A program made the translations under genes and the position numbers. Shown piece by piece: positions 14,083-34,493 of a stretch of DNA of 64,000 bases (position 1 is its first letter; every line of letters begins with the position of its first letter). The stretch spans positions 641,472-705,471 of the forward strand of contig JAMWZD010000001.1 of the NCBI GenBank assembly GCA_024304995.1, read 5' to 3'. The DNA is from Rickettsiales bacterium. Lineage in GTDB: Bacteria; Pseudomonadota; Alphaproteobacteria; Rickettsiales; UBA998. Under the pieces are notes generated by a model. That model saw only the letters and a program-made list of their open reading frames with translations. It made no database searches and was not told the DNA's origin.

Positions 14083-14670
14083 TTGACTAACAATTCCAAA
14101 AACTTTCATTATACAATAAGTAATATCTTTGAAAACGAATTAAAGATAGATGATCCTGCGTACACTCCAGGAAGTGTGGTAAATTGGATCTTTGAACAAG
14201 CTCGTTTAGACAATATACGTGATATATCAGCAATGAAGTTACAAAAATTACTTTATTTTATGCATGGAAATTATTTAAGATCTTTTAATAAACCTCTAGT
14301 TAATGAATATGCTCAAGCTTGGGACTATGGTCCTGTTTTTCCATCTGTTTATCATGAATATAAAACCAATGGATCTAAAGCTATTCCACTCAATGATATA
14401 AATTTAATGAGAGAATATGACACAAATATCAAAAAGTTTGTTCCGCTAATAGTAAACCGTAATGACAAAGAAACCATAACTATTTTACGAAATACATGGG
14501 AAAAATATAAAGATAAAAGCGCTAGTTATTTATCTGATCTAACTCATAGACCTGATGATGATAACCCTTGGATTATAATAAGAAATATATCTAAAGAAGA
14601 GAAAATATCGAACATATCAACTCCCAATAGCATTATCAAAAAATATTTTGATGAAAATAACGACTTATAG
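14083..14670 (+). CDS. Panacea (DUF4065) domain protein, PanA/SocA-like antitoxin
   Basis: MKLQKLLYFMHGNYL...AQAWDYGPVFPSVYHEYK matches the DUF4065 core. TTG start with a strong RBS. Very AT-rich (13/60 GC in the first 60 nt). Confidence 0.8.
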   Translation: MTNNSKNFHYTISNIFENELKIDDPAYTPGSVVNWIFEQARLDNIRDISAMKLQKLLYFMHGNYLRSFNKPLVNEYAQAWDYGPVFPSVYHEYKTNGSKAIPLNDINLMREYDTNIKKFVPLIVNRNDKETITILRNTWEKYKDKSASYLSDLTHRPDDDNPWIIIRNISKEEKISNISTPNSIIKKYFDENNDL

Positions 14671-14679
14671 TTCAATGTG

Positions 14680-15240
14680 ATGGATGATGAGGAAATAAGA
14701 TTAGAAGAAGAGGCGAAGAAAAATGTTGCTATTGCTTATGGTAATGCACATAGAAACAGAGCTATCACTTTAGGTAAAAGACTAAAATGCTGGTATTATA
14801 TAATTGTTGGTGAAGTAATCTTATTAATTGCATCTTTTTTTGTATATAACTGTTTGTTCACAAAAAGCATTAACACAATTAAAGAAAGTCTATGCGAAGC
14901 AAAGTATTGTTACTTAGAAGCATCACAGATTCTCACAGTTTACTATATAGGGAAAGCTAGTTTTGTAAGTACTTTTATAATAATATTAATATGGACACTT
15001 AAACGTGTTACTCGTTTACAAGCTATGAGAATGATTCACTCAGACAAAGCCGTCATGGCAAACACTTTACAAACACTATTAGGTACAGAATTAGATAAAA
15101 ATTCAATTTTACGTCAAGCAACCAAAAATATGTTTAGCTCTTCTTTCGAAGTCATAAATACAAAAAAGAAAAACAAATCTTCTGAAATTATAGAATTAAA
15201 GGAATTATTGAATACTTTACTAAAAGAAAAAGAGGATTAA
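14680..15240 (+). CDS. hypothetical two-TM protein, candidate toxin partner of the Panacea protein
   Basis: Starts 10 nt after the upstream stop. Two TM helices (WYYIIVGEVILLIASFFVY and FVSTFIIILIWTL) and a charged coiled-coil-like tail. No recognisable family. Confidence 0.5.
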   Translation: MDDEEIRLEEEAKKNVAIAYGNAHRNRAITLGKRLKCWYYIIVGEVILLIASFFVYNCLFTKSINTIKESLCEAKYCYLEASQILTVYYIGKASFVSTFIIILIWTLKRVTRLQAMRMIHSDKAVMANTLQTLLGTELDKNSILRQATKNMFSSSFEVINTKKKNKSSEIIELKELLNTLLKEKED

Positions 15241-15690: not shown

Positions 15691-15745
15691 ATAAGACGAA
15701 TTTACGTAATAACAATATTATTTCTGGCAAATTATGCCCTGCCCC

Positions 15746-15774
15746 TTCACAACCGCTTCAAATTCACTTATATT
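15746..15774 (+). promoter_or_regulatory. sigma70-like promoter candidate for ssrA
   Basis: TTCACA, 17-nt spacer, then TATATT. Lies about 85 nt upstream of the acceptor-piece 3' end. Confidence 0.4.
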
Positions 15775-15780
15775 AAAAGG

Positions 15781-16180
15781 GTTGGTAACAACTATGGTAA
15801 TAGAGCTGAAACTGGAATAAGCGACCTGGACCCGGGGGCAGTACCCGGCATCTCCACCTGATGAGTTGGTGGTTGGTAGTGATTCGTTGGTAGATTGCAA
15901 ACCACCAACTACATACTAACCGACTCCTCAGGTGGGGATGACACAGCTTCGACAGGCGTAATAAAGAGTGGATGTTTACCCGGTATGAGCAATACCGATT
16001 GCCCACAAGGCAACAACATGCTCACATTCAATAAGTGCAAACGATAACAACGCACTTGTTGCTGCTAACGACAACAACGTCGTAGCTGCTTCTATTGCTG
16101 CCTAAGGGACGCAATAAATAAGCACTAGCAGTGAACGCGGTCTGGGGGGCGCCGGGCAACAGAATGCCTCCCGCTTGATT
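15781..16180 (+). ncRNA. ssrA: two-piece (circularly permuted) tmRNA
   Basis: T-arm CCGGG-GGCAGTA-CCCGG plus CATCTCC-ACC ends at 15858. The 5' acceptor strand GGGGATG...CTTCGAC starts downstream at 15934, and the two strands pair with a G3-U. Tag ORF 16037-16105 starts with GCA and ends in ..IAA-TAA. The outer ends are approximate. Confidence 0.8.
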
Positions 16181-18488: not shown

Positions 18489-19655
18489 ATGACTGATTCT
18501 TCTTCATTCCTGCCCCCGTATAATGCCATACTAGTAATGGAAAACGGGGATGAGTTTTACGGATATGGTATTGGGCGTGAGGGAACCGTGTATGGTGAGT
18601 TATGCTTTAACACTGCCATGAGCGGCTATCAGGAAATTCTGACTGACCCGTCTTATTACGGGCAGATTATCAATTTCACCACACCGCATATCGGCAATGT
18701 AGGCTGCAATCTGGAAGATATTGAATCTCAGGTAAAATCAGCGCGTGGCTGCGTGATACGTGAAGCCATCACCTCCCCTTCCAGCTGGCGCTCAAGAGGC
18801 AACTTTAATCTCTGGCTGGATAATCAGGGAATTACAGGGATCAGCGGTATCGACACTCGCGCATTAACCTCCTTCATCCGCACACATGGTCATCCGAAAA
18901 TCGCCATAGCCTATCATGCAGATGGGCTGGATGCGATTGACATCAGCACCATTCACGCAGATCTGGCAGAAACAGACTCACTCAAAGGTGCAGAACTCAC
19001 CGAATTTGTGACCGAACCCGAAAAACGCAACTGGTCAGAAAGCATCTGGGAACTGGAACATGGATATGGCGAGAATGCCAATACATCCTTCCACGTGGTG
19101 GCGATTGATTATGGCGCGAAAATGAACATTCTGCGCCTGCTGACGGCGAAAGGCTGCAAGGTGACGGTTGTGCCAGGCAATACAGATGCAAAAACCATTA
19201 TGAAGCTGAATCCTGACGGAGTATTTCTTTCCAATGGCCCAGGTGACCCGTCTGCCACAGCGCATTTTGCACTCCCTGTCATTAAAGAATTATTACATGC
19301 CAACATGCCCATTTTTGGCATTTGTCTTGGGCATCAGCTGCTTGCACTGGCGCTGGGCGCAAAGACTGAAAAAATGTATCAGGGGCATCGCGGTGCAAAC
19401 CATCCTGTAAAAAATCTTCTAAGCAACAAAGTGGAAATCACCAGCCAGAATCATGGTTTTGTGGTGCATAGTGATTCCCTGCCTTCCAACGTGGAAATCA
19501 CCCATCTTTCGCTATTTGATGGCACGATTGAGGGCATCAAAAGCAAAGAAAAACCTGCCTTCTCTGTGCAATATCACCCCGAATCCTCCCCTGGCCCGCA
19601 TGACAGCGAATATCTCTTCCAGCAATTTGTAGACATGATGCAGGGGCGTGCGTGA
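18489..19655 (+). CDS. carA: carbamoyl-phosphate synthase small subunit
   Basis: GATase motif ICLGHQLL and the HGFVV/HPE triad region. Start trimmed to the ATG at 18489. Confidence 0.95.
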   Translation: MTDSSSFLPPYNAILVMENGDEFYGYGIGREGTVYGELCFNTAMSGYQEILTDPSYYGQIINFTTPHIGNVGCNLEDIESQVKSARGCVIREAITSPSSWRSRGNFNLWLDNQGITGISGIDTRALTSFIRTHGHPKIAIAYHADGLDAIDISTIHADLAETDSLKGAELTEFVTEPEKRNWSESIWELEHGYGENANTSFHVVAIDYGAKMNILRLLTAKGCKVTVVPGNTDAKTIMKLNPDGVFLSNGPGDPSATAHFALPVIKELLHANMPIFGICLGHQLLALALGAKTEKMYQGHRGANHPVKNLLSNKVEITSQNHGFVVHSDSLPSNVEITHLSLFDGTIEGIKSKEKPAFSVQYHPESSPGPHDSEYLFQQFVDMMQGRA

Positions 19656-20017
19656 TGGATGCAATCCATAATGATAGCTCTGCACCTCCCGCCATCCATC
19701 ATGCGTTGCTAAAAGATGCTGATATTGATGATACGGATTTCTTGCGCGATATTGCCGCCCTGCCTTATGTGGAGCGTATCCTGTTATTTGGTTCGCGCAC
19801 AACACAGGATTATATGGAAGGCGCGGATCTGGACATCGCCGTAGACTGCCCTGATGCAAGCGATGAAGAATGGCATCATATCACGGACATAGCAGAACGT
19901 GCCTATACCTTGCTTTCCATAGATTGCGTCCGACTGGACACCCTAAAAGATGGGTTTTTCAAAGAACAGATTTTGCAGCACAGCAAAGTGATTTGCGATA
20001 AGCGTGGCGGTGCGTGA
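19655..20017 (+). CDS. minimal nucleotidyltransferase (MNT, HI0073-like antitoxin)
   Basis: ILLFGSRTTQDYMEGADLDIAVD (GS...DxD). Its ATG overlaps the carA TGA (TGATG). Confidence 0.85.
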   Translation: MDAIHNDSSAPPAIHHALLKDADIDDTDFLRDIAALPYVERILLFGSRTTQDYMEGADLDIAVDCPDASDEEWHHITDIAERAYTLLSIDCVRLDTLKDGFFKEQILQHSKVICDKRGGA

Positions 20018-20433
20018 TGACAGACATCACACTGGTAACCCATGCCGTCACGCAAACGCGCAACGCGCTGAACCGTTTAGACGAAGCGATTGGCGAACCG
20101 CTGGATTCTCATGCGTTCATGCTGGATGCCACTTTGCAGCGCTTTGAATATAGCTACGAAATGCTGTGGAAAACGCTTCGCAAATTGTTTGCGCTCAAAC
20201 ATATCCGCGTGAGTAACGCATGGGATGCCTTTAAAGAAGCCTATGCGCAACAGCTTATCAGTGATAAAGTCCTATGGAAACGCATTATAGAAGACCGCAA
20301 CCGCACGGTGCATCATTATTCTAACGAAGATGCCACCGCCATTTATCACCGCGTGTGCGATGAATATTTTTTGGCGATGACCGCGTTATTAGATGTGATT
20401 GAACGAGAACTGCAACATGAGTTTGTGGGGTGA
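20017..20433 (+). CDS. HEPN-domain protein, HI0074-type nucleotidyltransferase substrate-binding family (toxin)
   Basis: LQRFEYSYEMLWKTLRK and the Rx4H motif RNRTVHHY. Its ATG overlaps the MNT TGA (TGATG). Confidence 0.85.
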   Translation: MTDITLVTHAVTQTRNALNRLDEAIGEPLDSHAFMLDATLQRFEYSYEMLWKTLRKLFALKHIRVSNAWDAFKEAYAQQLISDKVLWKRIIEDRNRTVHHYSNEDATAIYHRVCDEYFLAMTALLDVIERELQHEFVG

Positions 20434-20458
20434 TGTAACGCTGGAGAGTAAATAGCAA

Positions 20459-21562
20459 ATGGCTTTTGATAAACCAACATTAATTATAATTGGTGCTGGA
20501 GCAAGTTTACCTTACAACTATCCTCTTGGTGATGATTTGATTAATGAGATAATCACGGCAAGCGATGAAGTTATTCATCGTGGGAAAATTACTGAAGCAT
20601 ATAGTCACTTAAAAGATATGCTATTGTTGCATGACCCTACTAGTATTGATACGTTTATGAAAAATCATGCAACAACTGGGGCAAATAGCGATTATAATAT
20701 ACAGAGTATATGCAAACAATTGATTGCAGAAATTATATTAAAAAAAGAAAACGCAGAATATTTTGATAAAAATAAACAGGTAGGAGGCAATCTAAATTGG
20801 TATCGTTACCTTGCACACGCTATTTTAGAAGATATTGATTCATTAAAAGACCCTAATGCTGCGCTTCCATTTAGAATTATTACCTTCAATTATGACGTAT
20901 CTCTAGACTATTATCTATTGACACGTATTTTAGCTGCTCCGCTACTATCCGATGAAGAAAAGCAAATTATATTAAAGAAGCTAGGCAATAATATTATACA
21001 TGTATATGGTGCTGTGAGAAACGTACCATGGGAAGATACAACATCACATGAAACAATTATTAGACATCTAATTAATAAACAACTAATAAAACCATCTAGC
21101 AATGCAATGACGATAAACGGTTCTGAGCAATATCTTGGTAGAGAAGACATTGAAATTCTTTATGGCATTGCAAATTTAAAAACTCAAAATTCTAAAAGCG
21201 TATTTTCTCCTTGTAAGGCGCAGGACAGCCATGACTTCAAGAACTTTTGCAATCAAGCTGCATCAAATTTACGCATCATTGGTGAAGAAAGAGCTTCAGG
21301 CAAGCAATCGCTTGCACCTTACTATGAGTTTATGCTAAATGAAATGAAGAAAATTATGTTTCTTGGGTTTGGCTTTGACAAAACTAATATGGAACTTGTT
21401 TTTTTATCACACAGACTATCTTCTCTGGAAACTATTGAATATACCAATTATGGAAACAAAAAGAAAATAAACGATTTTGTGCATTCGTACTTTGAGGTTG
21501 TTGACATTTCTTGTTCAACCAAAGACGTATATAATGCACTAGTTAATGACTTTAACTTATAG
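20459..21562 (+). CDS. stand-alone SIR2-like (SIR2_2-type) protein
   Basis: Motifs IIIGAGASLPYNYPLG, ITFNYDVSLD, IIHVYGAV and IMFLGFGFDKTN in SIR2-family order. AT-rich (20/60 GC in the first 60 nt). Confidence 0.6.
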   Translation: MAFDKPTLIIIGAGASLPYNYPLGDDLINEIITASDEVIHRGKITEAYSHLKDMLLLHDPTSIDTFMKNHATTGANSDYNIQSICKQLIAEIILKKENAEYFDKNKQVGGNLNWYRYLAHAILEDIDSLKDPNAALPFRIITFNYDVSLDYYLLTRILAAPLLSDEEKQIILKKLGNNIIHVYGAVRNVPWEDTTSHETIIRHLINKQLIKPSSNAMTINGSEQYLGREDIEILYGIANLKTQNSKSVFSPCKAQDSHDFKNFCNQAASNLRIIGEERASGKQSLAPYYEFMLNEMKKIMFLGFGFDKTNMELVFLSHRLSSLETIEYTNYGNKKKINDFVHSYFEVVDISCSTKDVYNALVNDFNL

Positions 21563-21603
21563 CTACATAGTGATAGCTTGAATACCTGAATAAGAGATAC
21601 ATC

Positions 21604-24600
21604 ATGCCTAAAAGAACCGACATACATTCCATCCTCATCATTGGCGCGGGGCCTATTGTTATTGGGCAGGCGTGTGAATTTGATTATTCTGGAACGCAGG
21701 CGTGCAAGGCATTGCGGGAGGAAGGGTATCGGGTGATTCTGGTGAATTCCAACCCTGCCACCATCATGACAGACCCTGACATGGCGGATGCGACCTATAT
21801 TGAGCCCATCACACCTGAATTTGTGGAAAAAATTATCGCCAAGGAAAAGCCAGATGCTCTGCTGCCCACGATGGGTGGGCAAACGGCGTTGAATTGCGCC
21901 AAAGCGCTGGCAGAACGTGGCGTGCTGGATGCACATGGTGTGGAACTGATTGGTGCAAAGTTGGAAGCCATCAACATGGCGGAAGACCGTCAGCTTTTTG
22001 CAGATGCCATGAAGCGCATTGGGTTGCAATGCCCTAAACAAGCTACGGCACATTCGATGGATGAAGCATTTAAAGTGCTGGATGAAGTCGGTCTGCCTGC
22101 CATTATCCGCCCATCATTCACCATGGGTGGCGCAGGCGGCGGGGTTGCCTATAACCGTGAAGAATTTGAGCAGATCGTTAAAAGCGGGCTGGAAGCCTCT
22201 CCCACCACAGAAGTGCTGATCGACGAGTCTATTCTTGGCTGGAAAGAGTTTGAAATGGAAGTGGTGCGTGACCATGCGGATAACTGCATCATCATCTGCG
22301 CGATTGAAAATATAGACCCGATGGGCGTACATACAGGCGATTCCATGACCGTTGCACCTGCGCTGACGCTGACCGACAAAGAATATCAGATTATGCGTGA
22401 TGCTTCCATTGCGGTGCTACGTGAAATTGGCGTGGATACGGGTGGTTCCAACGTGCAGTTCGCTGTAAACCCTGAAAATGGACGCATGATCGTGATTGAG
22501 ATGAATCCGCGTGTGTCACGTTCCTCTGCGCTGGCATCCAAAGCGACAGGTTTCCCGATTGCTAAGGTGGCGGCAAAACTGGCAGTGGGCTATACGCTGG
22601 ATGAAATCACCAACGATATTACCCGCGCCACACCTGCGTCTTTTGAGCCAAGCATTGATTATGTCGTGACGAAAATCCCGCGTTTTGCATTTGAAAAATT
22701 CCCAGAAGCAGAAAATTCACTGACCACGTCTATGAAATCCGTCGGTGAAGCGATGGCGATGGGGCGCAATTTTGCGGAATCCATGCAAAAAGCATTGCGT
22801 TCGCTGGAAACTGGACTGACTGGCTTCAATGAAGTGGTCAAAAATTCAAAGAACCCTACGGATGAAATTAAGAGCCGTCTGGCGCAACCAACACCAGACC
22901 GTCTGCTTATAGTGGCTGATGCGTTCCGCCATCATTTCAGTCTGGAAGATATTGCAGCCATCACCAAATATGACCCGTGGTTTTTAGAACAAATCCGCAA
23001 TATTGTGGAAATGGAACAGCAACTGAAAGTGAAAGGGCTGCCAACTGACAAACGCTCATTACTGCACATCAAAAAAATGGGCTTTAGTGACGACCGTCTG
23101 GCAGAACTCACGCAGCATGAAACCAAAACTGTGGCATCACTACGCGAAAATCTTGGTGTGTTCCCCGTTTACAAACGGATTGATACCTGCGCAGGCGAAT
23201 TTGATGCACTGACACCCTATATGTATTCCACCTATGAAGGGGATGGCGTTCATGATGGAATGTGTGAGTCTGACCCGACAGACAAGGAAAAAATCATCAT
23301 TTTAGGCGGCGGACCGAACCGAATTGGGCAGGGGATTGAGTTTGATTATTGCTGCGTTCATGCGGCCTATGCCCTTTCTGAAGCGGGTTTTGAAACCATC
23401 ATGGTGAATTGCAACCCTGAAACAGTCTCTACCGATTATGACACATCTGACCGTCTGTATTTCGAACCACTGACTGCCGAAGATGTGATCAATCTTATCC
23501 GCAAAGAGCAGGAAAATGGTTTTGTACGTGGTGTGATTGTGCAGTTTGGCGGGCAAACGCCACTGAAACTGGCGCGCGCACTGGAAGCAGCGGGCATCCC
23601 GATTATCGGCACATCACCCGATGCGATTGACCTGGCGGAAGACCGTGAGCGCTTCCAGAAGCTACTTTATTCTTTGGAGTTGAAGCAACCTGCCAACACT
23701 ATCTGCCATAGTGAAGAAGAAGTGCTGGAACAGGCTGACGTGATGGGATACCCCGTGGTGGTGCGCCCATCTTACGTGCTTGGCGGGCGGGCGATGGCAA
23801 TTATTTATGATTCTGAGCGTCTCAAAAAATATTTGCATGACGTATTGCGTGAATTTCAGGACAACCCGATTTTGCTGGATTCATTCTTAAAAGATGCGAT
23901 TGAAATTGATGTGGATGCACTCTCAGACGGGCAGCATGTGCATGTTTGTGGCATCATGGAACATATTGAGGAAGCAGGGATTCACTCAGGTGATTCCGCC
24001 TGTTCCCTGCCGCCACATACGCTCAGTGATGAATTGATAGATGACATTAAGATTCAAACCATTCAGCTTGCACGCGCACTGAACGTGGTTGGATTGCTCA
24101 ACATTCAGTTTGCCGTGAAAGATGGCGATATCTTCATTATTGAAGTGAACCCACGCGCCAGCCGCACTGTACCGTTCGTGGCAAAAACGATTGGCATTCC
24201 TGTAGCAAAATATGCATCCCGCCTGATGGCAGGTGAAAAACTTGCGGATCTGGGGCTGTCGCATGACAGCATCATTGACATGGAAGCATTAGGGCATGTG
24301 GCTGTGAAGGAAGCGGTATTGCCATTCAAACGCTTCCCTGGCAGTGATGCTATTTTAGGTCCTGAAATGAAATCCACAGGTGAAGTGATGGGCATTGACA
24401 GCTCATTCGGACGCGCCTTTGCCAAAGCCTATATGGCGACGGGCAGCAAACTTCCTAATGAAGGCAATGTGTTCGTGTCCGTTAAGGACAGTGACAAACA
24501 TGCGCTGATAGACATTTGCACCTCGCTGCGTGAACTGGGCTTCAGCATTGTTGCGACCAAAGGAACGCAGGAGTTTCTGGCAGGGCATGATATTGCTGCA

Positions 24601-24861
24601 TCGGTTGTGAACAAGGTTCGTCAGGGGCGGCCACATATTGTTGATAGTCTGAAGGATGGTAAAATTCAGTTTGTGATTAATACGACCGAAGGCGCAAAAT
24701 CCATCAGCGATAGCGCATCCATTCGAAAAACATCATTGCAGCAGAATATCCCATATTGCACGACTATCGCAGGGACGCGCGCCTTGATTGAAGCCATGAA
24801 GTTTATTCACAAGGAACGTGGCATGAGCGTGAAAGCCATTCAGGAGTACTTCACCGCGTGA
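21604..24861 (+). CDS. carB: carbamoyl-phosphate synthase large subunit
   Basis: 1085 aa with duplicated ATP-grasp halves and an MGS-like C-terminus. Confidence 0.97.
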
Positions 24862-24920: not shown

Positions 24921-27900
24921 ATGAAATTAGCCGACTTGTATACAACAACCTGCCTTAGTGCCGTTCTGCTCAGCATGACATGTGCAGGCACGGTGCTGGC
25001 TGCCCCTGAAGGCGCGCAGGTTGCTGCTGGTTCAGCCAATATAAGTTCACCCCAGTCAGGGCATGTGGTAATTCAACAGCACACAGATAAAGCTGTAATC
25101 AACTGGAACCAGTTTGATATTAAGGCAGGAGAACATACAGAATTTCGCCAGCCCTCTCAAAATGCATCCACCTTAAACCGAATTAAAGGGAACGCACCAA
25201 GCAACATCAATGGCAGATTAACTGCCAATGGCAATATTGTTGTGGTGAATCCTCATGGTGTGGTGTTTGGAAAGAATGCCAAAGTGGATGTGGGCGGGCT
25301 GGTTGCCAGCACAGCCGACATTGCTGATGAGAATTTCATGAAAGGCACACTGGGTTTTGACCGCCCTGGCAAAGCAGATGCAGCCATCATCAATCATGGT
25401 GTGATTACCGCAAAAGATGCAGGACTGGTAGGGTTGGTAGCACCGCACGTGGAAAATCATGGTACGATACAGGCAAGATTAGGAAAAATAGTTTTGGCAT
25501 CAGGTGAAACAGCAACAGTTGATATGCACGGAGACGGGTTAATTCAGGTTGCTGCAAGCGGAGACAGCAAAAAACTGCTTGTTTCGCAGCAGGGAACGTT
25601 ACTTTCAGAAGGCGGCACTATTGCATTGACTGCAGCAGATGGCCGCAACATGCTTGACAGCCTGATTCAGGCAGATGGAGCATTATCAGCTGCTTCTATC
25701 CAGCATTCTGGTGGCAGAATTGTGATTACAGGTCAGGATAGCGATATAGAAGTAAATGCTGATATGGATGTTTCTGGTATGGATAAGGCTGGAAGCCTAT
25801 ATATTGGCGGGGATTTTAAGGGCAATGGCACATTACCCACCGCCAGAAATGTAACGCTAAACAAGGATGCTGTCATACGCGCAAATGTGAGAGGCGATGG
25901 CAAAGGCGGCACGGTGATCGTCTGGTCAGACGAACAGACAAGATTTGCTGGCACAATTGAAGCAAAAGGGAGCGCAGGCGGTTTTGTTGAAACATCAGGT
26001 AAACAAAAGCTGAACATTGCTGATTCTGCATCTGTGGATACGCAAAATGGCACATGGCTCCTGGATCCTCAGGATTTTACCATCGCAGATTCTGGTGGAG
26101 ACATGACGCCAGCTGCATTGCAGACCAATCTGGCAAGTAACAATGTCACCATTACCAATGCAGCAGGTGCAGGGAACGGTGACATCACCATATCAGATGC
26201 AGTTAGCTGGAGCAGCAGCAACACGCTGACACTGGATGCCATCCGCCACGTTCAGGTGGATGATGCCATCAGCAACAGCGCAGGGGGTAATCTGATTTTG
26301 CGAGCAGATAAGAATGGCACTGGCACGGGAACAGTCAATTTTGGTGGCGGTGGGTCTGTCAGCATGAATACGGGGCGTAGTGATATATATTATAATCCCA
26401 CCAGCTACACCACACCAACCAATTATGCAGCGAATGTGACAGGCACGTTTGATGCATGGATGTTAGTGCATGATGTGAATGATTTGCAGGATATCAGTGG
26501 CAATAAAAGCGGTAATTATGCACTCAGCAAAGATATTGATGCCAGCGCAACAACGGGTTGGAATGGTGGTTTAGGGTTCAATGCGATTGGGTTCAGCGGT
26601 AGCGAATTTACTGGAAAATTTAACGGTCAGAATTTTGCTATTAATAACTTATTTATCAACCGTCCTTCTCAGGGCAATCTGGGTATGTTTGGCGGCATTG
26701 ACAGCGCAGAAATTAAAAATGTGCGTGTATTATCCGCAAACATTACTGGTCAGGATGATACTGGCATATTAGCGGGCGATGTTGAGCAATCCACCATAAC
26801 TAACGTGCATACCTCAGGTAATGTTACTGGAAACATTAGTGTTGGCGGTCTTATTGGTGAAGCTTCAGACAGCACCACTATCACTCAGTCATCTTCCGCA
26901 GCAAATGTTTCAGGCAATGGTGAAGTGGGCGGACTTATTGGTGACCACGAAATGGCATCTTCAACCAGCAATAGTTTTGCCACAGGAAACGTAACATCCG
27001 CAGGAGATAATATCGGCGGACTCATTGGTAATAATGACAGCGTTACCGTGTCCGATAGTTATTCTACGGGATCTGTTACAGGAAATTACCGCGTTGGTGG
27101 TTTGGTAGGTGAAAACAGCACAAATTCCACAATAACCAATAGCTATTCTACATCCAATGTAAATGCCGATAGAAATGTAGGCGGTTTAACAGGAGACAAT
27201 AACAATAACTCCACCATTACGAACAGTTATGCAACAGGCATCATTACAGCAGGCGACGACAACGCAGGAGGGTTGGTGGGTCTCTTAAGTGGCAATTCAA
27301 CCATTACTACCAGCTATGCAACTGGTAATGTAAGCGGAGAAGATGATGTTGGCGGTTTGGTTGGGGATTCAGAAGGCACCATTTCCAACAGCTACGCTAC
27401 GGGAAGCGTTACTGCAAGAGACAATGTGGGTGGTTTTGCAGGAAGACATGATAATGGGGCAACAACGTCAAATAGTTATGCACTCGGCAATATATCTGGA
27501 AGAGATAATGTTGGCGGGTTTATAGGTCTTAATGACAGCGCAACGTCTACGAATAATTACGCCACGGGTACGGTATCTGGAAGAAATTCAGTTGGCGGTC
27601 TGGTTGGTAGCAACGCTGGCACGTCCTCAGTCACTCAAAGTTATGCAACTGGCAATATCACTGCCACTGCTGGCTCACTGAGTATTGGAGGGTTAGTAGG
27701 GGAACATAAAGATAACGCAACCATAACTTCCAGTTATGCGACGGGAGACATTTCGGGTGATGGTGACTGTGTAGGTGGATTGGTTGGTTGGGCAATGGAC
27801 AATGCACGCACAGAAACAAGTTTCTCAACAGGTAACATTACAATAGGAGCGGGAAGAAATATTGGTGGCCTAACAGGGTTAGTTTCGAACGATACTGTCA

Positions 27901-28907
27901 CGCTCAACAGTTACGCAACAGGTATAGTGAATGGTGATGATGATGTTGGCGGACTAGTTGGGGAAATGAGAGAAAATGCAGTTTTAAACTTTGTATATTC
28001 AACTGGGCAGGTTTCAGGGAATACAGATGTTGGTGGCTTAATCGGGCTACGCGCCAATGCATCCAGTGTCACCAATGGATATTGGAATGTGACCACATCA
28101 GGGCAGGCAACCAGCAACGCAGGTACGGAAACAGGGCTGACCACAGCACAAATGATGGACGCGGCATCTTTCACAGGATTTGACATTGCCACAACAGGTG
28201 GCAGCTCCAATGTATGGCGCATTTATGAAGGTAACACTGCCCCATTACTGCGATCTTTTTTAACGCCGCTTAACGTAAAAGCGAATGATGCTACAATGAC
28301 ATTCAATGGCAGTGCTTACAATGGTAGCGAAGGGGTAACTTATACCACCTTCAACACGGGCGATAATAGCAGCAATTTACTGGGAACACTAGATTATGGC
28401 AGCTCTGATACAGATATTGGAACGTATGTTTTAACGCCAAGCGGTTTGTATGATGACCAATTCGGATATGATATTAGTTACAGCACAGGAACATTAAACA
28501 TTACTGTTGCACCACCTGCACCTTCTGCACCAACAATACAGCCAACATCACCAAAAACCAAAGTGCCGACAACTGTTCCAGAAACCACTCCTCCATCATC
28601 ACCTCAGACATTACCAGCGCCTGAGACTCCTGTGGTTCAAACGCCCCCCACTTCCAAACCAGAATCAAAGCCTCGCTCCACATCAATTCCCACAACGGTA
28701 GAAATTGTATCGCAAAAGCCAGCCCCTGAAAGCAACGGAACTGCTTCAGTTGCAAAAGGCACGCAGCGTTCACCCCAGCACACTTCGTCAAATAAGATGA
28801 TTTTTGTTGAAACAGATGAGACCAGCAATGCAACCTCTAAAGGGGATATTATAATCAGCAAACCGCTTGCAAAAATGCTTAATCTGACCCGCTCATTATT
28901 TGATTAA
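24921..28907 (+). CDS. TPS-domain (filamentous haemagglutinin N-terminal) exoprotein with GLUG repeats and a Pro-rich tail
   Basis: Signal peptide. TPS motifs INWNQFDI and VVNPHGVVFG. About 16 GLUG-type repeats (VGGLVG). C-terminal P/T/S-rich segment. Confidence 0.85.
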   Translation: MKLADLYTTTCLSAVLLSMTCAGTVLAAPEGAQVAAGSANISSPQSGHVVIQQHTDKAVINWNQFDIKAGEHTEFRQPSQNASTLNRIKGNAPSNINGRLTANGNIVVVNPHGVVFGKNAKVDVGGLVASTADIADENFMKGTLGFDRPGKADAAIINHGVITAKDAGLVGLVAPHVENHGTIQARLGKIVLASGETATVDMHGDGLIQVAASGDSKKLLVSQQGTLLSEGGTIALTAADGRNMLDSLIQADGALSAASIQHSGGRIVITGQDSDIEVNADMDVSGMDKAGSLYIGGDFKGNGTLPTARNVTLNKDAVIRANVRGDGKGGTVIVWSDEQTRFAGTIEAKGSAGGFVETSGKQKLNIADSASVDTQNGTWLLDPQDFTIADSGGDMTPAALQTNLASNNVTITNAAGAGNGDITISDAVSWSSSNTLTLDAIRHVQVDDAISNSAGGNLILRADKNGTGTGTVNFGGGGSVSMNTGRSDIYYNPTSYTTPTNYAANVTGTFDAWMLVHDVNDLQDISGNKSGNYALSKDIDASATTGWNGGLGFNAIGFSGSEFTGKFNGQNFAINNLFINRPSQGNLGMFGGIDSAEIKNVRVLSANITGQDDTGILAGDVEQSTITNVHTSGNVTGNISVGGLIGEASDSTTITQSSSAANVSGNGEVGGLIGDHEMASSTSNSFATGNVTSAGDNIGGLIGNNDSVTVSDSYSTGSVTGNYRVGGLVGENSTNSTITNSYSTSNVNADRNVGGLTGDNNNNSTITNSYATGIITAGDDNAGGLVGLLSGNSTITTSYATGNVSGEDDVGGLVGDSEGTISNSYATGSVTARDNVGGFAGRHDNGATTSNSYALGNISGRDNVGGFIGLNDSATSTNNYATGTVSGRNSVGGLVGSNAGTSSVTQSYATGNITATAGSLSIGGLVGEHKDNATITSSYATGDISGDGDCVGGLVGWAMDNARTETSFSTGNITIGAGRNIGGLTGLVSNDTVTLNSYATGIVNGDDDVGGLVGEMRENAVLNFVYSTGQVSGNTDVGGLIGLRANASSVTNGYWNVTTSGQATSNAGTETGLTTAQMMDAASFTGFDIATTGGSSNVWRIYEGNTAPLLRSFLTPLNVKANDATMTFNGSAYNGSEGVTYTTFNTGDNSSNLLGTLDYGSSDTDIGTYVLTPSGLYDDQFGYDISYSTGTLNITVAPPAPSAPTIQPTSPKTKVPTTVPETTPPSSPQTLPAPETPVVQTPPTSKPESKPRSTSIPTTVEIVSQKPAPESNGTASVAKGTQRSPQHTSSNKMIFVETDETSNATSKGDIIISKPLAKMLNLTRSLFD
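26673..28080 (+). repeat. coding tandem repeats (~28-30 aa GLUG units)
   Basis: Units of the form NSYATGNVSGxxxVGGLVGxxxxxSTIT recur about 16 times. Confidence 0.8.
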
Positions 28908-32526: not shown

Positions 32527-32712
32527 AGCGTGAGCCTATAGGACATCAGCGCGTCTGTCTATGCTAGGTCCTTACTATTATAATTTGACAGCAAATAAAT
32601 AATGTAACATTTATGTATCTCCCAACTATACATCAACAGTGCTAACTTGCTTGCAACATGGCTGCATAATATTACATTAGCTTTTTCAAACATAATAGTA
32701 TTCAATAATAAT

Positions 32713-33846
32713 ATGAGATTAAATTCGCTTTACATAAATAACTTCAAATGCCTACAAGATTTCACCATTGAGCAGCTGGGCAATGTGAATCTCATTGTAG
32801 GTCAAAATAATATTGGTAAGACTACAATCCTTGAAGCTATACGCTTATATGCAACGAATCCACGAGGTGGTTTGAGGAATTTAATTGCGAAAATAAGTGA
32901 AGAACATGATGAGTTTCTTTATGAAGAAGACCCTGAATATAATCGGCGTTATCGAGCAATAAATTTTGAGTCCCTTTTTTACAATCGATGCTTCCCCGAA
33001 TCAAACGAAGATTCTATTGAAATTGGCTCAGTAAGAAACGGTCAAGACTCTCTGATCATAAAAGAAGCATTCCAGCGTGTCTATGTTAAAGCTGATGAAC
33101 CTGATACGATAGTCAAAGAAATTATTGAGAAAGAGGAGATCGATAATATAATTGATGATGCTGTTGAGCAGAATATTTTAGCAACAAAAAATGGGAAATC
33201 CGTAATATTAAACGTAGTTGAACGTTTACTCCCCATGAGGCACAGGCTAAGTACTATCTCACATTTTGATGATATTCCTTGTAAATATATTCCTACACAG
33301 CTTCTACACCAAAATGATTTAGCTAACGAATGGGATGACATTGTCATTACTTCGTATGAAGAAAAAATACTCAATGCTATAAAAATTCTCGAAAATAATC
33401 TTGAGCAAATTGCGGCAATTAAAAATCATCGTGATGACAGAACCTTCAAATTAAAAACAAAACAGAGTGAAAACATTCCTCTAGCTAGTATGGGAGATGG
33501 CGTTTTTAGAATTTTGCAGTTAGCAATTAAAGCGGTAAAAGCGCAAGATGGCTTTTTACTTGTTGATGAATTTGAGAATGGACTACATTACAAAACTCAA
33601 TATAAAGTCTGGAAATGGTTGTTTGAGCTATCTCAAGAACTCAACATTCAAATCTTTGCAACCACACATAGTTGGGACACCATAGAAAGCTTTTCAAAGG
33701 CTGCTCACGATAATACTAATGTACAAGGAAGTTTGTTCAGAATAGCTAAAAGTTTGAAAGAGGCAGATAATAATAAAATTATAGCTACTACTTTTAATGA
33801 AGACAGCTTAAAAACCATTACTCAACAACAAGTTGATGTAAGATGA
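32713..33846 (+). CDS. ABC/SMC-type AAA ATPase (AAA_15/21-like)
   Basis: Walker A GQNNIGKTT, signature-like SMGDG, Walker B LLVDEFENGLH and H-loop ATTHS. AT-rich (18/60 GC in the first 60 nt). Confidence 0.8.
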   Translation: MRLNSLYINNFKCLQDFTIEQLGNVNLIVGQNNIGKTTILEAIRLYATNPRGGLRNLIAKISEEHDEFLYEEDPEYNRRYRAINFESLFYNRCFPESNEDSIEIGSVRNGQDSLIIKEAFQRVYVKADEPDTIVKEIIEKEEIDNIIDDAVEQNILATKNGKSVILNVVERLLPMRHRLSTISHFDDIPCKYIPTQLLHQNDLANEWDDIVITSYEEKILNAIKILENNLEQIAAIKNHRDDRTFKLKTKQSENIPLASMGDGVFRILQLAIKAVKAQDGFLLVDEFENGLHYKTQYKVWKWLFELSQELNIQIFATTHSWDTIESFSKAAHDNTNVQGSLFRIAKSLKEADNNKIIATTFNEDSLKTITQQQVDVR

Positions 33847-34493
33847 TTAATAATCCCAAATTGCTTATTGTCGAAGGAAGTTCAGATAAAGCATTTTTCA
33901 AAAGCGTATTAAAAAGTATAGAAATTGACGCCGAAATTATGGTTGCATACCCATCCGAAACGGGGACAGTTGACGGTAACGGGAAAGGCAATGCTATAAA
34001 AACGCTAGTGTTAAGAGCAAAACTTCATAATATTGAACCTGTGCAAACAGGCATAATTTTAGATGCTGATCTCACAACAAAAAAACAAGGATTTGAAAAA
34101 ACCAAATATGCCGTTAAATCTGCCATAGAACCATTCTTTAATATTACCAATGAAACCACTACTGACGGAATTATCTTTCATGGTGAAGCAGGCATTACAC
34201 CGATTGGTTTGTGGATAATGCCTTCAAATAGTGAAGACGGCAATTTAGAAGATTGGATTGTGAAGAATCTTAACAACACTGAAATAAGCAAACACCAAAT
34301 TGCTAAAAAATTGTTAGATGACTTGGATGACTCAATCAAAGAATTTCAATTACATCATCTGAGCAAAGCAGAGCTACTTACTATGCAGGCTTGGAAAAAC
34401 AGACCCAAAAGCACATGTTCAGTCAATCAGATTAATACGCAAAATCAGGATTACAAAAGTCTGGTCACTTGGTTTAAGAAGATCTTTGACTAA
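33843..34493 (+). CDS. TOPRIM-like (DUF4435/RloB/DUF3226-type) protein
   Basis: ATGA overlap with the ATPase gene. N-terminal LLIVEGSSDKAFF and GIILDADL resemble the TOPRIM Glu and DxD motifs. Confidence 0.55.
   Translation: MINNPKLLIVEGSSDKAFFKSVLKSIEIDAEIMVAYPSETGTVDGNGKGNAIKTLVLRAKLHNIEPVQTGIILDADLTTKKQGFEKTKYAVKSAIEPFFNITNETTTDGIIFHGEAGITPIGLWIMPSNSEDGNLEDWIVKNLNNTEISKHQIAKKLLDDLDDSIKEFQLHHLSKAELLTMQAWKNRPKSTCSVNQINTQNQDYKSLVTWFKKIFD

Follow-up and report, generated by a model that had tools for sequence, protein, structure and literature searches.

What does a lone AT-rich gene, lodged between the two carbamoyl-phosphate synthase genes of a Rickettsiales bacterium and encoding a SIR2-like protein with no evident partner, do for the cell that carries it? 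The gene lies in a stretch of 64,000 nucleotides (nt) of contig JAMWZD010000001.1 (assembly GCA_024304995.1, positions 641,472 to 705,471), hereafter called the window, where it shares the carA-carB site with genes for an MNT-type nucleotidyltransferase and a HEPN-fold protein. From its sequence and a predicted structure, we read the product as a self-contained SIRim-type effector that would consume nicotinamide adenine dinucleotide (NAD+) in abortive infection or a related form of defence, and we give this reading a probability of about 0.5. We favor a defence function because of the fold class, the conserved residues, the absence of partners, the foreign composition, the rarity of the gene, its occasional carriage on phages, and its fast evolution.

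An initial annotation of this DNA, made from the letters alone, had described a 367-residue open reading frame (ORF) with four SIR2-type motifs, assigned it to the SIR2_2 branch associated with defence, and proposed a search against the hidden Markov models (HMMs) SIR2_2, DUF4917, and AbiH. All four motifs are present in the translation. The HMM search gave a divided answer: the query itself had no match in Pfam or NCBIfam at an E value of ≤1, these three families included, whereas Pfam SIR2_2 (PF13289) was matched by 39 of 64 homologues at an E value of ≤0.01, the best being 8e-7. Against the PADLOC SIR2 model the query scored 19.5 bits (E = 8.7e-5) over its N-terminal half only. The same model was the best HMM match of 60 of the 64 homologues, and some of the 64 also matched the models for LmuA or for the SIR2 associated with prokaryotic Argonaute (pAgo). 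A sequence search of the PDB with the query alone returned zero matches; a search with one homologue (P0064) returned spurious matches only and was set aside.

The alignment of the 64 homologues (A1) served as a search profile and as the basis of an AlphaFold (AF2) model, and its invariant columns coincide exactly with the motifs first picked out by eye. The top match of the profile in the PDB was KomC (E = 0.007), and hhalign comparisons with KomC and the KomC family gave probabilities of 88 to 89% over the GAGxS and TxNYD motifs. The AF2 model reached a pLDDT of 88 and a pTM of 0.89; an insert at approximately residues 186 to 290 is poorly predicted, with pLDDT values of 47 to 67 around residues 200 to 230. 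When the model was compared with the PDB by Foldseek, all 16 matches at an E value of ≤1e-3 were SIR2 domains. Those of SIR2-HerA (best, 2e-5) and KomC head the ranking; ThsA, FAM118B, SPARSA, SirTM, and DSR2 come next, and SIRT2/3 last. No BFVD viral structure was matched at the same threshold. The structure prediction that had been proposed as a check thus yielded a confident model that matches SIR2 domains, that of ThsA among them. The four cysteines of the protein (residues 85, 252, 264, and 352) are scattered, with no CxxC pair and no Zn tetrad; a missing Zn-binding Cys tetrad is what sets SIRims apart from classical sirtuins (Bonhomme et al.). Given the HMM matches of the homologues, the profile match to KomC, the predicted fold, and the lack of a Zn tetrad, we accept the protein as a putative SIRim-class SIR2 fold, a membership that is transitive, by way of homologues, profile, and model. 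The initial assignment is supported by the same route.

Conservation of individual residues was counted over 190 distinct family sequences. The first motif (LIIIGAGASLPYNYPLG, residues 8 to 24) holds the predicted NAD-binding loop, whose G12-A-G-A-S16 aligns to the GAGVS loop of KomC in both hmmsearch and hhalign; G12 and G14 are kept in 188 sequences each and P22 in 189. The second (RIITFNYDVSLD, residues 139 to 150) carries F143, N144, and Y145 in 190/190 and D146 in 189/190, and in the last (KIMFLGFGFDKTN, residues 298 to 310) G303 is found in 189 sequences and N310 in 188. About fifteen positions are invariant across phyla. It is the third motif (NIIHVYGAV, residues 178 to 186) that departs from its first description. 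What had been called HxHG-like does contain a conserved His and Gly (H181 in 190/190, G184 in 188/190), but it actually reads H-V-Y-G, with Tyr183 apparently at the canonical His position; across the family this position is Tyr in 148 sequences, His in 33, and Phe in 9. The register, obtained by hmmsearch and greedy hhalign and of low confidence, pairs H181 with K144 of KomC, Y183 with H146, and G184 with G147. In local mode, hhalign with KomC or its family as target confirmed the first two motifs only, the alignment ending ahead of the His motif. The KomC family keeps K144, H146, and G147 without exception (K-x-H-G), and H146 is the residue that was changed in the deposited KomC H146N structures. 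The features of the gene and of its site are collected in Table 1.

Table 1. Coordinates in the window of the SIR2-like gene, its sequence motifs, and the genes and signals around it
Feature	Position	Strand	Basis or remark
SIR2-like gene	20459..21562	+	ATG start, 367 amino acids (aa); from the ORF listing
NAD-binding loop G12-A-G-A-S16, followed by the family-specific P-Y-[GN]-Y-P-x-G	20492..20530	+	Residues 12-24
T142-F-N144-Y-D146 (TxNYD), catalytic Asn/Asp motif	20882..20896	+	Aligned to TTNYD of KomC
H181-V-Y183-G184	20999..21010	+	Invariant His at -2 from the canonical His position
L302-G-F-G-F...N310, SIR2_2-type Rossmann beta-strand/loop	21362..21388	+	Aligned to LFIGYSLSDIN of KomC
Gene-sized AT-rich islet	20456..21585	.	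GC ~0.33; background, 0.46-0.50
Shine-Dalgarno-like GGAGAG	20443..20448	+	Direct reading; 10 nt ahead of the SIR2-like ATG
carA, carbamoyl-phosphate synthase small chain	18489..19655	+	Pfam families of the called gene; host gene upstream of the site
MNT-type minimal nucleotidyltransferase, MntA-like antitoxin	19655..20017	+	Pfam Polbeta, E 1.4e-10; NCBIfam MntA, E 7e-10, below the cut-off
HEPN-fold NTase_sub_bind/HI0074 protein, HepT-like toxin	20017..20433	+	Pfam NTase_sub_bind, E 3.9e-23
carB, carbamoyl-phosphate synthase large chain	21604..24861	+	Host gene downstream; starts 41 nt past the SIR2-like stop

The SIR2-like gene belongs to a large unnamed family of minimal SIRims that share the unusual His motif and occur as single-gene cassettes. 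A word-index search found 239 homologues of the protein, and relatives were located at 306 loci in one-per-species genomes representing 185,579 species. When 1.84 billion representatives were searched exhaustively with the HMM, 12,523 clusters came back at an E value of ≤1e-3 and 6,862 at ≤1e-30, the clusters being drawn at 50% identity, and we take the family to comprise at least 6,862 of them. Its members are short: the best 150 of the 12,523 profile matches are all 295 to 420 aa long and cover the full profile, and the proteins at 83 loci with a match measure 290 to 460 aa, with the ORF intact in 82 and split in one (L060). Pfam, NCBIfam, and PADLOC v2 contain no model specific to the family, and the literature searches turned up no stand-alone SIR2 system of this type that bears a name; stand-alone "SIR2 family proteins" as such are not surprising.

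The genes around the family members do not recur. Clustering of the three neighbors on either side at ~78 loci yielded no family present in more than 3 loci, and among 142 immediate neighbors the commonest Pfam domain was HTH_3, with 4 occurrences only. HerA, pAgo, TIR, SLOG, HEPN, and nucleotidyltransferase were not recurrent among the neighbors in either the Pfam or the PADLOC census. Together with protein length, these surveys bear out the earlier statement that no partner domain is fused or adjacent. The large genes that abut the alphaproteobacterial copies were considered as partners and rejected, since they proved to be mutS, nrdA, typA, lepA, uvrB, gyrB, and dnaE. At two related alphaproteobacterial loci (L005, 4281-4862; L007, 9212-9880) a gene for a phosphoribosyltransferase (PRTase)-domain protein of ~200 aa lies 3' of the SIR2-like gene, overlapping it by 4 nt in L007, and the two PRTases are 75% identical; this adjacency was not seen at other loci and is therefore probably synteny rather than functional pairing.

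Base composition marks the gene off from its surroundings. The hand counts that first drew attention to it, made over the first 60 nt of each gene, are exact (20/60 G+C for the SIR2-like gene, 28/60 for the MNT gene counted from its ATG at 19655, and 27/60 for carB), and the low G+C content (GC) holds for the whole gene, at 0.327 versus 0.463 in 21 kb of flanking DNA. GC at third codon positions (GC3) is 0.25, against ~0.50 in carA, carB, and the MNT and HEPN genes, and the trough ends within 3 and 23 nt of the two ends of the ORF. The same is seen throughout the family: GC lies under that of the flanks at 72 of 72 loci, by 0.113 on average, while GC3 is lower at 60 of 61 loci (mean, -0.19) and GC at the first two codon positions at 61 of 61. 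The islets have a median length of 1,085 nt versus 1,031 nt for the gene, and only one of the 52 runs on past it for over 1 kb. At the syntenic carA-carB site of a second Rickettsiales genome (locus L002), GC passes from 0.55 to 0.40 and back to 0.57, and the gene lies 13 points below its flanks. The SIR2-like gene thus carries a signature of horizontal transfer, with AT-richness a hallmark of the family. The initial annotation had taken this AT-richness as a sign of more recent acquisition; since low GC is family-wide, and found at the L002 site as well, it cannot date the insertion in the window.

Vehicles for such transfer were sought around the family copies. Direct and inverted repeats in the flanks did not exceed chance, no recombinase genes were seen, and a tblastn search for plasmid copies found none. 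Viral contigs in IMG/VR carry 15 intact copies, all 15 with GC below that of their flanks, next to genes for integrases, terminases, and portal and head proteins. In the window, no promoter or terminator around the SIR2-like gene scored above the shuffled expectation.

The family also evolves quickly where its position has stayed fixed. In syntenic pairs the SIR2-like proteins are 27 to 54% identical, compared with 62 to 81% for the adjacent housekeeping proteins. Downstream of nrdA (L012/L013), NrdA is 68% identical and the SIR2-like protein only 27%; in a trio of loci next to uvrB (L029/L039/L057), the closest UvrB pair (78%) has SIR2-like proteins that are 39% identical, and another pair has 47%. 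These values suggest very rapid divergence, or replacement of alleles at fixed sites; either behavior is what one expects of conflict genes rather than housekeeping enzymes.

On the defence reading, the gene would have been acquired horizontally as a single-gene, promoter-less cassette and would now be co-transcribed within the carA-carB operon, its product being kept inactive in uninfected cells. A phage-derived cue would then trigger consumption of NAD+ via the GAGAS loop, N144/D146, and the invariant H181, and phage replication would be aborted. Like other small SIRims, the protein would probably assemble with itself into an oligomer or filament to become active; the filaments described for KomC, ThsA, Avs5, and FAM118B (PMC12700824 among the sources) provide the analogy. 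The candidate sensor would be confined to the family-specific helical regions at approximately residues 25 to 135 and to the poorly predicted insert. We infer the NADase chemistry, the trigger, the oligomerisation, and the defence phenotype, the self-assembly part by analogy. A wider proposal, which we find possible but doubtful, would extend this scheme to a very large unnamed family of partner-less SIRims that combine sensing and killing in one SIR2 domain of ~300 to 370 aa with a rewired catalytic center, are carried as promoter-less AT-rich cassettes at the 3' ends of housekeeping operons, and exchange alleles by recombination in their flanks.

Several observations weigh against a defence NADase. 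The query by itself goes unrecognised by Pfam and NCBIfam, and the TM-scores of its Foldseek matches are modest (0.35 to 0.57). In the alignment, Tyr183 appears to sit at the canonical catalytic His position, with the invariant His181 two residues upstream, and a Tyr at this place in most of the family makes NADase chemistry less certain. Defence-like neighbors of family members are few in raw counts, and the genes are mostly set among housekeeping genes and not in recognisable defence islands. Finally, a constitutively co-transcribed, partner-less NADase would need a mechanism of autoinhibition.

The altered His motif is also the starting point of the main rival explanation, in which the SIR2 fold and a role in mobile-element conflict are retained and the chemistry is another one, such as ADP-ribosyl transfer to protein or nucleic acid or the processing of a signal nucleotide. 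The Tyr, His, or Phe at position 183 beside an invariant His at -2, where the KomC family has its invariant K-x-H-G, would fit such a change, and the fold matches include SirTM, a sirtuin with ADP-ribosylating activity; FAM118B on its own, moreover, is minimally active as an NADase (PMC12700824). However, both the NAD loop and the Asn/Asp motif have the canonical form, and given the low confidence of the register, H181 may fill the catalytic site in three dimensions. The characterised bacterial SIRims among the matches are also all described as NADases. We therefore consider a different chemistry rather unlikely, if less so than any of the explanations that follow. Should the motif be as it appears, a His-to-Tyr swap accompanied by an invariant upstream His would probe the role of the "catalytic" His in NADase sirtuins.

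The siting of the family could be taken to indicate a housekeeping or regulatory role tied to carAB or to nucleotide or DNA metabolism, for example, as an NAD-dependent modifier of the neighboring enzyme. The carA-X-carB arrangement is kept in two genomes. Relatives in Alphaproteobacteria abut core genes on the same strand, namely, mutS (gap, -8 nt), nrdA (twice), typA, lepA (gap, 0), uvrB (three loci by clustering), gyrB, and dnaE (gap, 0), and the close clade abuts the genes for CarA, UDG, and PBP5, with PRTase downstream; upstream neighbors outside the carA-carB site are thus often DNA or nucleotide enzymes (NrdA, UvrB, MutS, GyrB, DnaE, and UDG). At 43 of 61 loci the gene shares its orientation with the upstream neighbor, and the gap between them has a median of 31 nt; for the downstream neighbor the figures are 29 of 57 loci and 185 nt. 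It follows from the tight, co-oriented upstream neighbor that the cassette typically rides the tail of a host transcription unit. Yet the identity of the neighbor changes in almost every lineage, and the gene is compositionally foreign everywhere, rare among species, and faster evolving than the genes next to it, while the protein lacks the sirtuin Zn and substrate-binding module. A housekeeping role is accordingly improbable. Homing-endonuclease-like targeting of DNA-metabolism genes was also entertained to explain the bias in neighbors and was set aside, given the lack of a nuclease domain and the small sample.

The taxonomy of the closest relatives, which come from metagenome-assembled genomes (MAGs) of Rickettsiales, Holosporales, Legionellales, Coxiellaceae, and Berkiella, brings to mind a host-directed effector, secreted by an intracellular bacterium to manipulate eukaryotic NAD+, and the best match by TM-score, FAM118B, is a eukaryotic SIRim. 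Such a bias among the top matches is, however, expected from the query's own lineage, and the greater part of the family, at similar identity, belongs to free-living Planctomycetota, Bacteroidota, Omnitrophota, and other groups. Phages carry some of the copies, and no secretion signal or eukaryote-like domain was seen in the protein. We judge this explanation very improbable.

The two other genes at the site raise the question of whether all three form one system, with a toxin-antitoxin (TA) pair that regulates the SIR2-like protein or senses for it; the initial annotation had entertained an undescribed combination of SIR2 and HEPN-MNT, next to the alternative of two independent modules. Its identification of the neighbors is confirmed by their Pfam matches (Table 1). 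The MNT, HEPN, and SIR2-like genes follow one another directly between carA and carB, all in the same orientation and either overlapping or barely separated: the carA/MNT and MNT/HEPN junctions are both TGATG overlaps, and the gap of 25 nt between the HEPN and SIR2-like genes contains the GGAGAG. The MNT protein further matches six models of the PADLOC candidate PDC-S09 (best E, 2.3e-9), and stand-alone MNT-like genes are thereby already flagged as candidates enriched in defence islands. The pair has, however, the makings of a module in its own right. The GSx10DxD motif is intact in the MNT translation (LFGSRTTQDYMEGADLD) and Rx4H in that of the HEPN gene (RNRTVH), and the HEPN protein scores 80.9 bits against TIGR01987 (cut-off, 55.8), so that by motifs, score, and overlapping arrangement the two are a type VII HepT/MntA (HI0073/HI0074) pair. 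Pairs of the HI0073/HI0074 type are autonomous TA modules.

Comparison with other loci speaks against a single system. The closest homologue, P0002 (47% identity), is encoded at the L002 site mentioned above, in a Rickettsiales MAG in which carA and carB are 67 and 80% identical to those of the window; its gene begins 5 nt past carA, carB comes next, and there is no MNT-HEPN pair. Nor was a similar pair present in the other 86 family loci compared, and no HEPN or nucleotidyltransferase family was among those matched by at least 2 of the 142 neighbors. GC3 is host-like in the MNT and HEPN genes (0.47 and 0.53) and points to a history different from that of the SIR2-like gene, with its 0.25. From the absence of the pair at the syntenic L002 site, we conclude that it is independent of the SIR2-like gene; it is a separate type VII TA module in the same carA-carB site. 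The proposed combination therefore does not hold, the alternative of two independent modules being the one that agrees with the co-occurrence data, and a three-gene system is largely refuted and has very little probability left. The synteny with L002 suggests that the SIR2-like gene was at the carA-carB site before the TA pair, unless the pair was lost in L002. The window thus holds, at one insertion site, two accessory modules without relation to each other: the SIR2-like gene and the HEPN-MNT pair. No higher do we rate a decaying or functionless selfish remnant made AT-rich by relaxed selection, which the low GC3, the fast divergence, and the lack of a known partner would allow but which is at odds with intact ORFs at 82 of 83 loci, with some fifteen invariant positions that suggest purifying selection across phyla, and with a confidently predicted fold.

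Two details of these junctions were recorded in passing. The overlaps at 19646-19657 and 20008-20019 share the 10-nt sequence GTGCGTGATG, containing TGATG, which may serve to couple translation or may be left over from the insertion of the TA pair. In L002, the spacer between the SIR2-like gene and carB is 224 nt long, and the segment 11160-11335 holds two copies of a GC-rich palindromic motif of ~21 nt (ACTCCCCCCTTGAGGGGGAGT and ACTCCCCCTCAAGGGGGGAGT), ~130 nt apart, that resemble repetitive extragenic palindromic sequences or miniature inverted-repeat transposable elements and are absent from the window.

Other features of the window were also noted. Directly 3' of carB, positions 24921-28907 (+) encode a protein of 1,328 aa with an N-terminal two-partner secretion (TPS) domain and GLUG repeats, which resembles a two-partner-secretion exoprotein or adhesin. 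A transfer-messenger RNA (tmRNA) of the two-piece, permuted alphaproteobacterial type lies at 15742-16175 (+) (Rfam RF01849, 188.8 bits) and marks the window as alphaproteobacterial DNA. Beside this gene (ssrA) is the most AT-rich patch of the window, at 14083-15240 (+) (GC, 0.28), which encodes a SocA/Panacea antitoxin-domain protein (Pfam E, 2.8e-20), followed by an ORF of 187 aa with hydrophobic segments; the small membrane ORF has no family match, and the two are probably a PanA-type TA pair. At 32647-34493 (+) (GC, 0.34), an AAA_15/AAA_21 ATPase is encoded together with a DUF3226 protein. The ATPase matches PADLOC PDC-M38A (E = 2e-120) and AbiLi (E = 2e-52), and the DUF3226 protein matches PDC-M38B (E = 8e-48), which makes this pair a candidate defence system that stands alone among housekeeping genes. 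Both of the other strongly AT-rich patches in the window are thus candidate defence or TA modules, and this genome scatters its conflict modules singly among core genes, not in one island. Discovery based on defence islands would miss cassettes of this kind in essential operons, especially in compact alphaproteobacterial genomes.

How, then, does the SIR2-like protein compare with the SIR2 systems already known? The best Foldseek match is the SIR2 of SIR2-HerA (Nezha; 8sub, 8uae, and 8j4u), with an E value of 2e-5, a probability of 1.00, a similar size of ~400 aa, and a shared NAD loop and Asn/Asp motif; the PADLOC "SIR2" model, the best match of most family members, is one that we take to be the SIR2-HerA model. 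Unlike in SIR2-HerA, no HerA gene is adjacent at the ~78 loci, the neighbors in the window being HEPN and carB, and between the two proteins identity is 11 to 14%, the TM-score is ~0.4, and the His motif differs. KomC of Kongming (8zsf), the top profile match among solved structures, is likewise a small SIR2-only polypeptide. According to PMC13454610, it works as a filament and needs KomB and the deoxyinosine triphosphate (dITP) signal of Kongming. In contrast, the present family has no recurrent KomA- or KomB-like partner, the similarity to KomC is confined to the SIR2 core, the invariant K-x-H-G is replaced by H-x-[YHF]-G, and the SIR2-like protein is ~100 aa longer, with its poorly predicted insert.

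The larger systems differ mainly in what is joined to the SIR2 domain. DSR1 and DSR2 are SIRim NADase effectors and single-protein systems, with DSR2 among the fold matches, but the PDB chains of DSR2 have 946 and 956 residues and a long C-terminal sensor, against the 290 to 460 aa of the present family. ThsA, another SIRim NADase effector among the fold matches, carries a SLOG domain and needs TIR-made signals. Unlike Thoeris, the 367-aa protein is a bare SIR2 domain, and no TIR is among the listed neighbor families; unlike SPARSA, it has neither APAZ nor pAgo in the protein or its neighbors, and the weak matches of 8 of the 64 members to Aga_SIR2 cover the SIR2 domain only.

In the way it works, the SIR2-like protein would most resemble the SIRims that act as single proteins, with AbiH as the functional precedent and with FAM118B and KomC as small SIR2 domains that assemble into filaments. 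A comparable build is seen in FAM118B/SIRanc (9r3e and 9r0p), a SIRim of about the same length that consists of one domain, has no sensor fused to it, and gives the top TM-scores (0.48/0.57). FAM118B forms filaments, its catalytic Asn/His pair has been mutated (N163/H206), and appreciable NADase activity, minimal for FAM118B alone, needs its paralogue FAM118A (PMC12700824). It is, however, a eukaryotic (vertebrate) protein, and its match to the A1 profile is marginal (E = 0.66). If the defence reading is true, the SIR2-like protein would offer a tractable model of how a SIRim domain with nothing attached to it is silenced and then activated, and the same question applies to human FAM118A/B. 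A functional precedent for a stand-alone SIRim is AbiH, a single-gene system of ~350 aa that is protective alone, with an N-terminal loop motif that differs from GAGAS. The Pfam AbiH (PF14253) and PADLOC AbiH models were unmatched by the query and by all 64 members. This lactococcal abortive-infection protein has been placed in the SIRim clade (Bonhomme et al.). Should the SIR2-like protein turn out to function in defence, it would be smaller than every other self-sufficient SIR2 immune protein of bacterial origin in this comparison.

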